64,000 nucleotides of DNA from Eledone cirrhosa. Lineage: Eukaryota. Location of the stretch: assembly GCA_964016885.1 (NCBI GenBank), contig CAXHJY010000246.1, forward strand, positions 1-64,000, in the 5' to 3' direction. Position 1 is the first letter of the stretch. Every line of letters begins with the position of its first letter. Shown one piece after another: positions 3,176 to 52,530 of the stretch. A model generated the notes under the pieces. That model was given only the letters and a program-made list of their open reading frames with translations, did not search any database and was not told the origin of the DNA. The translations under genes were made by a program, and so were the position numbers.

Positions 3176-3552
3176 ATAATATGGAAAACGAAGAATCAGT
3201 GATGCATCGGAACACAATTTATTAACGTATTACAATTGTTTCTCCGGCGAACAGCTCGAGGTGCGATCTATTTGTGGATCGAACCTGACTCTAGATTCGC
3301 AAGTTCCTCAGATACGTCTAGTGACTTCGAAGATTTGCTATCTGAGGAACTTGCGAATCTAGAGTCAGGTTCGATCCACAAATAGATTGTACCTCGAGCT
3401 GTTCGCCGGAGAAACAATTGTAATACGTTAATAAATTGTGTTCCGATGCATCACTGATTCTTCGTTTTCCATATTATTATACTCTGCTCTAAAGGATCAT
3501 AGAGTGCTCAACCCGCATACCGCCTATGGACGCATCCAAGCGACCTTACTAC
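3176..3552 (+). mobile_element. PLE-type hairpin remnant (arms 3176-3314 / 3339-3477, tail to ~3552)
   Basis: Near-perfect ~139-bp inverted repeat flanked by TA/CA repeats, with a hammerhead core and tail motif GAGTGCT at 3502-3508. Confidence 0.75.
3226..3316 (-). ncRNA. Type I hammerhead ribozyme motif
   Basis: cgtat-CTGAGGA-[~62 nt stem II]-GAAAC-aatt-GTA-atacg, with stem I cgtat/atacg. The mirror copy on + (3339-3427) has a shortened stem I. Confidence 0.7.
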
Positions 3553-6518
3553 ACACATATATATATGAGTGATGACTGTATTATCGTATGTGTACCTTTT
3601 TCTACGTAACACTGGGGGGCGGGGAATGCATTTTAATTATATTTTTTGTTTGTATCCATATAGGGTGTAGCTGAGTGAATAGCACGCACACACACACACA
3701 CACACACACACATACACACACACACACACACACACACACACACACACACACACACACACACACACACACACACACACACATACACACAAACAAACAAACA
3801 CACAAACAATCAAACAAACACACAGACATGTACGCAGACAGTGTTTGTGCGTGTGTGTGTACCAGAACTATATATTTGTTTGTGTGATGACAAGGGTGTA
3901 TGTTTCTGGGTATGCGCATGCGCACATTTTCTTTCTGTGAGCGCACGCTTCAATTTTCATTTTGATAAATGGGCAAAAGTCGCAATAGATCGGAAAAGAC
4001 AATAAATTTTGTCGCAAATATAAAAAGGTAAAATAAAATAACATACAATAAAGACCAGCAATGTTTTTTTATTATTATTATTTTTTATATCTAATCAGTC
4101 TGTCTGTGAAAGATAAAATAGTACGGTGGAGTGAAAGAAGGTGGACAGACGAGATTTTTATTCAATAAGCAGATGATGACTTTTCCGAAACCAGAATATA
4201 CGTTTCTCTTTACCACATATTCTATGGAGAATGATTATTCTGTTTTACTTTTTTCTTTTCTTTCTTCATGTTCTCCTTTTATGTCACTCACTAGCTTCCA
4301 TCACTCTTTCGATCATTTATGTTCTTCCATCATTTTTTTTTTTTGCCCATTTTTACTCTTTTGACTTTGATTTTTGTTCTCACTAATCTTTCAGTTTTTA
4401 TTCTCGTCACCCGTTTTTATTCACTTTATTATTTTTTTTTATTAATTTATTCGTTCTATTAATACTTTCATTCATTAATCTATTACTTTCATTCATTTCA
4501 CTCTTTTATTCATTATTTTATACTTTATCCTTCTTTATTTTATCTTTTATTCATTTAATATCTTTCTCTCAGCTGCCTTATTTCTTCTCTTATTCTATTT
4601 ACTTTTCTTTCCCCTCGTTATTCTAATTATCTTCTTGTTTTCCTTCCTTTTTTTACATATTCAATAAATTTACTTCTTCATTATCTTCCTGTTCCTTTTC
4701 TATCTAATATTATATTATATTTCTATATTTCACCTATGTTTTCTTTCACTTTATTTTGCCTCTAATTTATTTATTCATTCATTTTTTACTTTCATTCATC
4801 TTACTATTTCATTCTTCCAATGTATTTTCATATCTACTCATCCATTTGCTGGGGGGGTATTTGGGGTGTGGTTATATATTCACTTTATTTGTGTCTCTTA
4901 GAACGAATGGGTGAAACGAAAACTAGTGGTGATAATAAACTCTGAGAGCTCGCCAGCAGCAGGTCTTCAGAGAAGAATTCCTCACCCCCTCCTCAAGCTA
5001 GTGTTTCGGCCCTTAACTTCAAAAGAGCCGAAACACTCGCTTGGGGGGAGGGGGGAGGTTTCTTGCCACAACTGGTTTTCGTTTCCCTCATTCGTTTCTT
5101 TATTATTTTTCTTTCATCAACTTCCCTCATCTTTTTAATTACATTGACATCAGAAACATATTTTTGGACTGTTAATATATTAAATGTTAATATAACATTT
5201 TTGCTTTCGTCAATTGTTTGGGGTTTTTTTACTCATCATAAAAGATAGTCAACAGGACTTGAAGATCCAATTACCTTCTCTCCTGTCAGTTGAAGGAATA
5301 AGAGGGAGAAGGAGCAGCTGAGATACTTATGCACTTGTTTAAGGACTTCCAGTGCCTGCCAGGTTTTGCCAGATCTCGTCTCGAATGACCCGTATTTCTT
5401 TTCCTGTAATAAAAAATGGGATTTAAACTAAGAACTCACAGAGTCGTATCAGATACCCCAAAGCATATGTTTTAATACTAAATGTACTAACATTCCACCA
5501 CTCTACCATCCTTGGATGGTACTTTATTTCTCACACCCGGAAAAAGATGAAAAGCAACGTTACCACAAATGGCATTTCAATTCAGATCACAGAAAGCCAT
5601 TTATTACAAGCCAGCGGATACTTTTATCACTTTCTCCATTCCCCGCCATTTTAACTCTAATATATTCATTATATTTCTTTTTGTTTTATCTTCCTATTCT
5701 TTTATTCTATTATTTCGGCACATTTCTTCTCTTACGTAATAAACACCTTCCATTATTTCCTATATTATTTGGAATATTTGTCACTTAAAATCATTTTCCT
5801 TTTATTTTCCATCTTCTCCCCAAAACTTCCCACCCTCCCTCTCTCTCTCTCTTTCTATCTCTATTTCTATCTTTCTCTTTCTCTCTATCTATCTATCTAT
5901 CTCTCCCTGTATCCTCTCCTCATTTGTATTCAGTTGTTCATTAAGAACATCTTTTCTTCCATTACTTGTATAACCTCATTTACTTCAATTTCTTATTCCA
6001 CCCAGTTCTCTATCTCTCACATTGTATATATATATATGTATATATATATATATATATATGTGTGTGTGTATATATATATGTATATATATATATATATAAG
6101 TATGTATATATATATATATATATATATATATATATATATATATATATATATATATATATATATATATATATATATATATATATACATATATATATATACA
6201 TATATATTCATATGCGTGTATATATATATATGTATATACATATATATATATATATGTGTATATATATGTATATATATATGTATATAACGAAGGAATTATG
6301 GTAAGGAACCAGATGCACCATAACGCACCAGAGTACTCAATACTTAGGGTAGTAGAGTCGGTCTAACTTTTTCCTATATATGTATATATATATATGTATA
6401 TATATATATATGTATATATATATATATATATACATATATATATATATATATATATATATATATATATATATATATATATATATATATATATATATATATA
6501 TATATATATATATATATA

Positions 6519-6709
6519 GTGAGGGAAAAGTGGTAAGGAACCAGGTGGACCATAACGCACCAAAGTACTCAATACTTAGGGTAGTAGAGTGGGTAATAGG
6601 ATTAAGTAAGACCCCGACGGCTGAGCTCAAGCCGTTTCGACGGCTAATTCTGTACAGAATTAGCCGTCGAAACGGCTTGAGCTCAGCCGTCGGGGTCTTA
6701 CTTACTCCT
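6519..6709 (-). mobile_element. PLE-type hairpin remnant with perfect 102-bp palindrome (6603-6704)
   Basis: Spacerless palindrome centred on TGTACA; contains the hammerhead 3' half GAAACggct...agccGTC; tail has GAGTACT (6564-6570). A partial tail copy lies at 6285-6375 and related fragments at ~10400-10443, 41421-41480 and 55590-55690. Confidence 0.65.
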
Positions 6710-6770
6710 ATATATATATATATATATATATATATATATATATATATATATATATATATATATATATATA

Positions 6771-50510: not shown

Positions 50511-51082
50511 TGATCGTGCTTCCGATGTAAACTTCGCCATATATGAGACATTAGATACAGTAAACTATGTATATCTATGTATATCTATAAGTATGTGTTA
50601 CGAATAGAGCCGTTCTCCAACGCTAATTTGTTTTATATATATTCTTAAAATATATCTGAAGATATCCTATTACTCCATATTAGCCCAATTTTTGTAAAAT
50701 TTGATATTACACTTAACTATTTAGAGATATATAATTACTTAATTACGAAGATGGGACATAGAATAATGTTTGCAATAACCAAGGCTTTTTGAAGGTTTAT
50801 TTAATCTATTTTTCAAACAATCGTTACATCAAGCTTCTAATTTGCTAATCAAATTTCTTTTCAGCTTAATAAACAATATATATTAGAGTCTGTGTCATAA
50901 AGATATATCGTGTAAGTGTTTGCAGCTTTGTGGTTTTTGTTCTCTCAAACAGGCACACACACATACGCATATACACACATGCATATACATACACGCACAC
51001 ATACATACATACATACATACATACATACATACATACATACATACATACATACACACATTCACACACATGCACATACATACAT

Positions 51083-51690
51083 GGTGGCTGCCAACTCGTT
51101 TTCGAGTACGGCCACTACTTTATATCCATGTAGGAGAACCCCTACCGATGCGCTGAACGAGTGTGACTTTTTAGTCCAGCCAGCGACTTGAAAACTCTGG
51201 TACAAACACTACACTTGTGACAATTATTGACACATAGTGCTGGGCCCATGGTACCATGTGACGACAAGTGCAGAGAGATCTCCAGATATAAAGCAATGCC
51301 TGTGTCGTGAAGCTTTTATAGTGAGAAGAAGGCACTGCACAAAGCCAGTCCCACTCTCTTAACCAAGATGATATTTACCAAAAAGAAGAACAAGTCAACA
51401 TCATTGGATACCATCAGGGTTGCAGGTGTTATATCAGAGTTTTCCTTCTCCTAGAATTTTGCCTTGACAAAGGCTAAGGGGTCATCTCTCCCGGTGATTT
51501 TGGATGGCCATTGACTCTTAAGAGCTCCTTTGCCCTTTGACAGGTTTTGTTTTTAGTCCTGCAGGATGTCCAAAGTCACCCTCCTCACCAAGAAACCTTG
51601 GGGGGGGTTGCCAGTTTAGTTGCCAACGACCCGACCATGAGACAGGTTGTACTGGGATACATGTTACCAGTAGCACCAAGTGGTGACCTG
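51083..51690 (-). mobile_element. ~600-bp non-autonomous RTE-derived element, copy 3
   Basis: Reverse complement of copies 1 and 2; flanked by (CATA)n. Confidence 0.8.
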
Positions 51691-52231
51691 ACATACATAC
51701 ATACATACATACATACATACATACATACATACATACATACACAAATACATACACACGCACATACATACATACATACATACATACATACATACATACATAC
51801 ATACATACATACACAAATACATACACACGCACTTACATACATACATACATACATACATACATACATACATACATACATACATACATACATACATAAGCTG
51901 ATTAAATACATGTACTTTTTCCGTTTCTTCCACTTCTCACTCTCTTCTATCTTTCTATTGATGAAAGATTAGTGTCCGAAATGCTAAAACACTTTTCCTA
52001 CTATAAAAGTGTTAAACTAATATATATCTTCATTGAAGTGTATTGTTTGCTTTTATTGTACTTTTACTTTTCGCATGCGCGCCGCTGATCGTTTTTAGAT
52101 GTCCTGTATTAAGCGCCGAAACATACTGATCTCGGTTTTACAGCTGATGAAGGATTTCTTTTCTTCTCTTGTTTCGTCCATACTACCATCTTAAACTATA
52201 TATATATATATATATATATATATATATATAT

Positions 52232-52530
52232 ACGTGGAAAAGTAAGAAATCGGAGAATAGACCGTTAAAACATGTTTATTTAAAACAGTACCTACGTACG
52301 TACGTAGGTGGTGTTTTAAATAAACATGTTTTAACGGTCTATTCTCCGATTTCTTACTTTTCCACGTGCTTACGCTCTGCCAACTCTCTAGCCCACTAAA
52401 TATTAACACTTCAAATATTTAATACTGCCGGCACTAATATCGAGCACCTTTGGCATACCCTACTTGCAAATAACTATATGTATCACCTATCCTCCCCTTT
52501 TTTTCTCTCTCTCGATACGTAAATACTGTA
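52232..52530 (+). mobile_element. Hairpin insertion (palindrome 52232-52367) with tail
   Basis: 68-bp arms centred on cctacgtacgtacgtagg; flanked by (TA)n; tail contains GAGCACC at 52442. Confidence 0.55.

Follow-up and report, generated by a model that had tools for sequence, protein, structure and literature searches.

Palindromic insertions in a 64-kb stretch of Eledone cirrhosa DNA as very probable Hydra-clade Penelope-like element stubs, and twin hairpins that mark the ends of Hydra elements

We analyzed a window of 64,000 nucleotides of Eledone cirrhosa DNA (contig CAXHJY010000246.1, positions 1 to 64,000 of the forward strand), in which a first-pass annotation had named 11 inverted-repeat insertions and read them as ultra-truncated Penelope-like elements (PLEs) from many families. 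A self-comparison of the masked window together with arm alignments recovered all 11 of them. They are referred to here by the positions under which they were named (3176, 6603, 6771, 7311, 10066, 10689, 11728, 14131, 25130 and 52232), the eleventh being a coding copy. The proposed origin was borne out and could be narrowed to the Hydra clade of PLEs by endonuclease motifs and a hairpin in the tail; the palindromes are very probably stubs of Hydra-clade elements. Their architecture is already known. The new part is a pair of twin hairpins marking both ends of Hydra elements. For coordinates see Table 1.

The arms of the 11 inverted repeats comprise 58–284 nt and are 91–99% identical. They enclose centre loops of 0–126 nt, or of 956 nt in the coding copy. 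Dinucleotide runs, mostly TA with some TG/CA, flank both ends of every insertion and measure only 6–10 nt at 7311 and 25130. The layout described before (microsatellite, arm, loop, arm, one-sided tail, microsatellite) was observed with the inversion in all cases and with the tail in ten, but 7311 has no clear tail. The tail lies on the left, i.e. the element is on the minus strand, in 5 of the 11. The insertions are mutually unrelated, as no pair gave a BLAST match at E < 0.05 with dust filtering on. Nine palindromes fall within 3176–14431 and together with two smaller relatives occupy 4788 of these 11256 bases. This clustering is in part due to a concentration of (TA)n, since positions 2500–14500 hold 45% of the (TA)n bases of the window in 19% of its length; measured against TA bases, a binomial test gave p = 0.016, with boundaries chosen after inspection. 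Inverted repeats at 30599 (a pair of a dispersed repeat resembling a short interspersed nuclear element, SINE), 31139 and 43528 were excluded from the set. Two small inverted repeats (31136–31205 and 43528–43575) and an isolated hairpin-like match (38837–38857) have no stub context. The 6603 and 25130 families also have degenerate solo relatives, ended by (TA)n, at 41421–41479 (-), 55629–55687 (+), 52788–52920 (+) and 52593–52637 (-).

A descriptor of the type I hammerhead ribozyme (CUGANGA..GAAA, stem I of at least 4 bp, at least two extra stem III pairs, stem II optional) matched nine times in the 64 kb, always within six of the insertions (3176, 6771, 7311, 10066, 10689 and 25130) and nowhere else, which reproduces the six hammerhead insertions and stem III loops claimed earlier. 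In 1000 dinucleotide-shuffled versions of the 11 insertions, six was never reached (maximum 1), and 100 shuffles of the whole window yielded a mean of 0.13 matches (maximum 1). A relaxed descriptor with variant cores found no further hammerhead in 6603, 11728, 14131, 52232 or the coding copy; the arms of 6603 contain the 3' half only (by eye). No Rfam hammerhead was among the 150 matches listed of 231, the listed ones being microRNA-like or of low complexity. The foot of stem II carries unpaired bases, which are also common in published Hydra hammerheads (Craig et al. 2021, PMC8557442), and stem II reaches a length of 62 nt in 3176 and 116 nt in 10689. About 85 nt of the latter (10788–10873 and its mirror) are missing from many reads of the 10689 family; stem II is therefore variable in length while the core is kept.

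In the insertions with motifs the sense hammerheads face outwards, and the arms are therefore arranged head to head. The suggestion that a transcript of either strand contains a ribozyme plus its antisense holds for 6771, 10066 and 10689, where both strands pass the descriptor, but not for 3176 and 25130 (one strand) or 7311 (core in the loop). In read-through RNA, pairing between the arms is predicted to mask the ribozymes, because the hairpin formed by the two arms is calculated at -112 to -329 kcal/mol, far beyond the -20 to -87 kcal/mol of the halves folded separately. As long, near-perfect hairpins the stubs would likely be sources of double-stranded RNA, if transcribed.

The coding copy contains a frame of 202 amino acids that is 38% identical to the C-terminus of a reverse transcriptase (RT)-endonuclease protein, P0001. 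Pfam GIY-YIG matched this frame with E = 0.0022 and 18.7 bits, under the curated cut-off of 22.6. The motifs CxCX5C, CxxC..E and N.R.E..CxH are present and CX2-5CxxC is absent; the Hydra clade is defined by CxCX5C, CxxC and CxH without CX2-5CxxC (PMC8557442). By inspection, the GIY-YIG stretch has a single cysteine and thus no CCHH pair, and a stop codon after the domain places the endonuclease at the C-terminus. TTLA and CKLC motifs are common to the window protein and Hydra-1_Obim, and CxCX5C was found in 24 of the best 30 among 3282 relatives. A PLE-type RT, truncated away in the window copy, is present in the long relatives of the endonuclease: those checked contained DKT/S and YRDD (5/5) and RWK (4/5), and relatives of at least 680 amino acids, mostly reached via P0001, had RWK in 63 of 65 and DKT/S in 65 of 65, in the N-terminal part that the window copy has lost. 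A protein search for sequences of near length with the endonuclease gave no match, an initial metagenome scan using a two-sequence alignment found no relatives, and Pfam assigned no family to P0001 or to four other frames of the window. A protein atlas search returned only unnamed and GIY-YIG clusters, and no solved structure was found for the protein.

The first-pass annotation had taken the GIY-YIG copy as the link to PLEs. Its Hydra motifs agree with this, but hairpin and hammerhead style tie the non-coding stubs to Hydra more firmly. The coding copy is the weaker link because stem I is absent from its hammerhead-like core (12272–12380) and, by eye, the H1-like hairpin some 5 nt into its tail is degenerate. 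A tandem duplication of about 24 nt is located at its 5' junction (13395–13445). Neptune (also Nematis) was rejected as the clade of origin, as the CX2-5CxxC linker zinc finger is absent. Naiad, with an N-terminal endonuclease and no canonical hammerhead, was rejected in view of the stop and 3' untranslated region after the endonuclease and of the hammerheads. Non-LTR retrozymes require head-to-tail units, and the self-comparison found no direct repeats among the insertions.

A hairpin of the pattern RCTC-stem-2-nt bulge-GAGY-RCT, referred to as H1, begins 3–8 nt beyond the tail-less end in seven of the 11 stubs. The form ACTC-N-GAGT-RCT is common to five tails; the pattern was drawn from the window data. 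As a structural pattern (4-bp outer stem, 2-nt 3' bulge, inner stem) it matched the window 12 times, ten of the matches being stub tails (shuffles: mean 1.8, maximum 7). A tail hairpin and a hammerhead style at clade level are common to families that BLAST does not connect. Among six published Hydra consensi two contain the hairpin exactly and one as a variant, and the other three stop before the hairpin position (by eye).

For the situation outside the window, a profile of 62 relatives led to 78 metagenome loci (best 80 of 398 confirmed; 68 clusters). The outside hairpins were selected with the window-derived pattern, and only the position, the doubling and the inner covariation of the hairpin are independent there. 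A hammerhead was found in 35 of the 68 loci having the end of the open reading frame (ORF), with T.T at the foot of stem II in 15 of the 35. The hairpin follows the hammerhead cut at a distance of 36–59 nt in 17 of the 28 loci with at least 80 nt of sequence after the hammerhead, representing 15 sequence clusters (antisense control 1, shuffle mean 0.13). It was also observed in 28 of 51 5' regions (antisense 1, shuffle mean 0.27). When the pattern was relaxed slightly, two copies were found in 28 of 40 5' regions, one in five and none in seven. The second copy (H2) is spaced 55–85 nt from H1 in 27 of the 28 regions with two, and both hairpins lie 35–150 nt upstream of the start codon. At one locus (L055:1-5083) two full-length Hydra elements, nearly identical to each other, stand in tandem.

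In 62 distinct outside hairpins picked by their outer letters, inner pair 1 is always formed (C-G 46, T-A 16), pair 2 in 43 of 59 and pair 3 in 29 of 36. Pairing amounts to 87% in the register with the 2-nt bulge vs. 23–40% in four alternative registers, and two-sided changes occur in 21 cells of 25 aligned hairpins. All 62 have G-C as their outer pair; among seven window tails, six have A-U. From 25 of 56 outside hairpins a covariance model was built; a MAFFT alignment of all 56 had misaligned the short ones. The model gave 17 window matches at E ≤ 5, and the eight with E < 0.05 are all stub tails and correspond to seven of them. It misses 10689 (63-nt loop), 7311, 11728, 52232 and the coding copy. 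The bases at -8 to -3 before the outside hairpins are 80% A+T.

Ends were mapped at 26 outside loci in which the 5' region is repeated at the 3' end; 14 were dropped (12 contig ends, two without a strict hairpin). Ten of the 12 mappable 3' ends fall -3 to +7 nt before H1 (four) or H2 (six). Forward ends without inversion likewise stop before H1 or H2. The inverted arm of L049 ends 5 nt before H1 and that of L009 8 nt before H2; L034 is uninformative. The window tails with H1 measure 56–88 nt, or 136 nt where the loop has 63 nt, which matches the H1-H2 spacing. Since the mapped ends precede one or the other hairpin and the lengths agree, the tail is the stretch between two hairpin-marked ends.

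Sequences from four of the 17 sequencing runs listed were mapped to positions 10690–12044 only, where depth is not a measure of copy number. The 10689 and 11728 families are deeply covered relative to the intervening unique DNA. In two 2026 restriction-site-associated DNA (RAD) runs, 426 and 450 raw reads stop at 11143 and continue with (AT)n, and coverage extends over the tail too; the 10689 family therefore has two 3' ends. The one-sided tail of 11728 is covered at arm-like depth. Both families run on beyond the palindrome centres and are therefore represented here by truncated copies, not by complete miniature transposons. Terminal inverted repeats of DNA transposons, the alternative named at the outset, do not describe these arms: in the reads of these two families, the one-sided tails belong to the family and the family continues past the centre. 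Judged by the read consensus, the tail-less arms of 10689 and 11728 contain 2–4 nt of element sequence that their tail-bearing arms lack; in 3176 the tail-less arm likewise has more of stem I. In 10689, both arms carry the same minority base (10878/10953) and a long stem II insert that many reads do not have, which points to one template. Ten same-strand read joints resemble head-to-head junctions in other copies; their sides are 22–30 nt, nine come from the contigs of one run, the roles of their arms are ambiguous, and they were not used for the choice of mechanism. A further region with very high read depth and inverted joints (11578–11615) is probably another small palindromic repeat family.

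Based on these results we propose that the palindromes are 5'-truncated, head-to-head Hydra PLE insertions in (TA)n, whose ends are set by H1 and H2 through a dimeric RT-endonuclease. We assign this explanation as a whole a probability of roughly 0.6. Copying from two primers, which we infer as the mechanism, is favored by a modest degree. The endonuclease would cut both strands within (TA)n, and a putative RT-endonuclease dimer, such as is predicted for a Poseidon PLE, would bind H1 and H2 on a single RNA. Each cut 3' end would then pair with the A/U-rich patch directly 5' of one hairpin. A cDNA begun before H2 would copy H1 and the spacer, i.e. the tail, and a cDNA begun before H1 would be without it. 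Both would extend toward the RNA 5' end, often halting near the same place, would sometimes snap back over 10–25 nt, and would be joined end to end. Short snap-back palindromes and filler are found at the junctions of the window stubs. Two separate cDNAs are suggested because the tail-less arms have extra 5' bases and the two pieces of the mini stub at 6287 do not overlap. The template was not cleaved by the hammerhead in at least six of the 11 stubs. The stubs lack H2; unless a tandem arrangement provided one, they would be dead ends.

A number of observations weigh against this proposal. The loop is 0–2 nt at 4 of 11 centres and at most 24 nt at 8 of 11, which is simpler under fold-back of one cDNA. 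A clean H1 is lacking in four stubs (7311, 11728, 52232 and the coding copy), H2 was not seen in the window, and five stubs are without a complete hammerhead, two of these having a partial core (half, or without stem I). The hairpin pattern was originally taken from the window, and the zone of -3 to +9 was fixed after inspection. Isolated hairpins fold weakly (z from -0.7 to -2.9), and that of 3176 prefers another fold. Two of the 12 outside ends, in L011 and L031, deviate from the hairpin positions. The extra sequence of the tail-less arms amounts to only 2–4 nt or a 14-nt resemblance and could also have arisen through later trimming of palindrome centres. The start sites of the Poseidon enzyme in vitro were equal on both strands (Frangieh et al. 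2024, PMC11167929). No read or contig among those listed spans the centre of 10689 or 11728.

The strongest alternative is that a single cDNA folds back and copies itself, and that the endonuclease cuts this intermediate just before the hairpin, leaving the one-sided tail. Self-priming was proposed by Arkhipova et al. (2013, PMC3846280) and endonuclease-mediated resolution by Craig et al. (2021, PMC8557442). Besides the four shortest loops, the nested palindromes at the 14131, 7311 and 52232 junctions and the private variants common to both arms would fit such a process. The snap-back copies in 7311 and 14131, however, are short, and the second arm does not continue from them. Neither the non-overlapping pieces at 6287 nor the additional 5' bases of the tail-less arms are expected from it, plain forward ends without inversion also halt before H1 or H2, and two RT start sites were demonstrated in vitro in another clade (PMC11167929). 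We therefore consider fold-back unlikely, though a serious competitor to two-primer copying.

Alternatively, the hairpins could act in transcription or translation of the downstream ORF, and ends would precede them merely through A/T-rich patches pairing with (TA)n. Their position before the start codon and the A+T content at -8 to -3 are in line with this role. Yet 10 of 12 loci have their ends within 10 nt before a hairpin even though A/T-rich sequence is also present elsewhere in the 3' regions, and the spacing in the window is 3–8 nt, which makes this explanation improbable. It is still less probable that the hammerhead-less palindromes 11728, 14131 and 52232 are TA-targeting miniature inverted-repeat transposable elements. 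They are near-perfect palindromes in TA repeats in which the descriptor finds no hammerhead, but 14131 has H1, and the reads of 11728 show the tail at arm-like depth and the family beyond the centre; 52232 is the least resolved of the three. Library or assembly fold-back artefacts, for which the uncovered centres of 10689 and 11728 could be cited, are the least credible source of the palindromes, given that arms differ by substitutions and indels and that outer ends match both family-wide ends in raw reads of the two 2026 runs and a hairpin conserved in unrelated loci; it is thus the biology of the ends, not the read evidence, that makes an artefact unlikely.

Inverted truncated copies, tails and microsatellite targets of PLEs have been published (PMC8557442). 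Of the 27 Hydra families listed there, 26 prefer (TA)n, one is from octopus and one has an inverted 5'-truncated copy. The window stubs share with this clade, which includes Hydra-1_Obim from Octopus bimaculoides, the endonuclease motifs, the (TA)n targets and a type I hammerhead near the 3' end, as well as the inverted 5'-truncated copy with its one-sided tail. They differ in their long stem II inserts, in length (90–600 bp vs. 2–2.7 kb) and in their tails (38–160 nt vs. 30–40 nt). The words "hairpin" and "stem-loop" do not occur in the main text of that paper. None of the publications found describes twin hairpins for Hydra elements, though such a description may exist in subscription papers, in supplementary figures or in Repbase reports.

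In vitro, Poseidon PAc cuts and extends both strands, two internal starts bound the tail, uncleaved RNA is preferred and a dimer is predicted (PMC11167929). AT-rich targets are shared with the Hydra stubs, for which extension of both strands, uncleaved RNA, two tail-bounding starts and a dimer are likewise part of the reading proposed here. In that different clade, however, the starts lie in one AC-rich stem-loop 111–118 nt inside the ORF, and the text available describes no twin conserved hairpin; the Hydra marks are located in the 5' untranslated region. The minimal hammerheads described from metazoan PLEs likewise have a palindromic stem III and an unpaired base preceding stem II, and occur in many diverse families per genome (Cervera and De la Pena 2014, PMC4209133). 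Two hammerheads lying 100–700 bp apart on opposite strands were attributed there to truncated PLEs, in the text available without clade assignment, tail hairpin or end mapping. Penelope of Adineta vaga has head-to-head inverted pseudo-long terminal repeats (pLTRs), junction palindromes and an optional tail as well (PMC3846280), but was explained by self-priming and shows target duplications of 8–10 bp, which microsatellite flanks would hide in the window. The non-LTR retrozymes (Li et al. 2026, 10.64898/2026.07.22.740005) are also short, non-coding and PLE-derived with a type I hammerhead, but form head-to-tail tandem arrays, in contrast to the single head-to-head pairs of the window.

Table 1. 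Insertions, relatives and hairpins in the window (H1, tail hairpin; identity as identical columns of the arm alignment).
Feature	Position (strand)	Arms (identical)	Tail	H1	Hammerhead and remarks
3176 stub	3176..3549 (+)	3176-3314 / 3339-3477 (137/139)	3478-3549	3481..3508 (+), 3 nt beyond arm end	Core to cleavage site 3231..3311 (-), in tail-less arm; stem I 7 bp vs 3 bp in tail-bearing arm (latter by eye)
Mini head-to-head stub, 6603 family	6287..6375 (-)		tail-only piece (-)	6332-6358	~14 nt resembling arm end (+)
6603 stub	6518..6711 (-)	6596-6653 / 6654-6711 (57/58)	6518-6595	6564-6590	No loop
6771 stub	6771..7205 (+)	to 6936 / from 6952 (171/172)	7118-7205	7123-7145	6823-6872 (-), 7016-7065 (+)
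7311 stub	7310..7640 (+)	7310-7404 / 7531-7626 (86/94)	none clear		7473-7501 (+), inside loop; short snap-back palindrome ~7421-7441
10066 stub	9982..10384 (-)	to 10218 / from 10235 (153/156)	9982-10065	10034-10061	10112-10166 (-), 10287-10339 (+)
Solo fragment resembling 6603 family	10398..10444 (-)				Hammerhead 3' half to arm end, between (TA)n
10689 stub, high-copy family	10689..11279 (+)	10689-10910 / 10921-11143 (219/222)	11144-11279	11148-11231, 63-nt loop	10761-10895 (-), 10936-11070 (+)
11728 stub	11728..12042 (+)	11728-11865 / 11867-12004 (137/138)	38 nt	not found	Not found
Coding copy, 5'-truncated	12105..13730 (-)	inverted 13450-13733, body, 12210-12493 (281/284)	12105-12212		
202-aa frame, stop to stop	12854..13462 (-)				C-terminal GIY-YIG endonuclease, CxCX5C linker, CxxC, CxH; RT lost
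14131 stub	14046..14428 (-)	14130-14253 / 14308-14431 (117/124)	14046-14129	14094-14121, G-C outer pair	No hammerhead; nested 30-nt palindrome 14252-14281
25130 stub	25068..25266 (-)	25124-25194 / 25196-25266 (68/71)	25068-25123	25097-25119	25204-25241 (+)
Solo degenerate relative of 25130 family	25430..25452 (-)			25430..25452 (-)	
52232 stub	52232..52527 (+)	52232-52298 / 52301-52367 (65/67)	160 nt right-hand stretch	only as variant	None
Tail-only copy of 10689 family	54018..54120 (-)			54038-54117	(CA)/(TA) repeats at end

The window contains other repeats. An abundant SINE-like family, which we take to be octopus-like, is found at 1737–1913 and in about 15 further copies (18538, 23124, 30556, 39356, 43411, 48459–49155, 49620 and others), with tandem copies at 48459–49155 and an inverted pair at 30599–30802. 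A repeat of about 600 bp with (TACA)n-type ends occurs in three copies that are 96–97% identical (26963–27563, 33507–34112 and 51083–51690). Positions 45902–47455 hold about 21 copies of a 74-bp tandem unit, and a long tandem repeat array at 56349–61117 leaves frames open up to 1199 codons. The frames 29051–29524, 35847–36437 and 54380–55145 (all on the minus strand) matched no Pfam family; judged by their motifs they presumably are fragments of the long interspersed nuclear element type.

The origin of the PLE tail and inverted ends was stated as an open question by Craig et al. (2021, PMC8557442), and the in vitro answer so far is partial and comes from one other clade. A covarying, doubled hairpin that predicts both ends across distant Hydra elements makes specific mutations testable and two-primer copying separable from fold-back. 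The hairpin also provides an annotation tag for ORF-less Hydra stubs beyond BLAST linkage. Going one step further, the two-hairpin RNA cassette may be a molecular ruler: the RT-endonuclease dimer would clamp H1 and H2 and prime both microsatellite strands at once, so that every insertion would be born as two opposed cDNAs. We regard the chances of this idea as evenly balanced. If it is true, a cassette of about 150 nt alone would turn any RNA into a substrate, and the tail, the inverted pLTR and the palindromic stubs would be products of one reaction.

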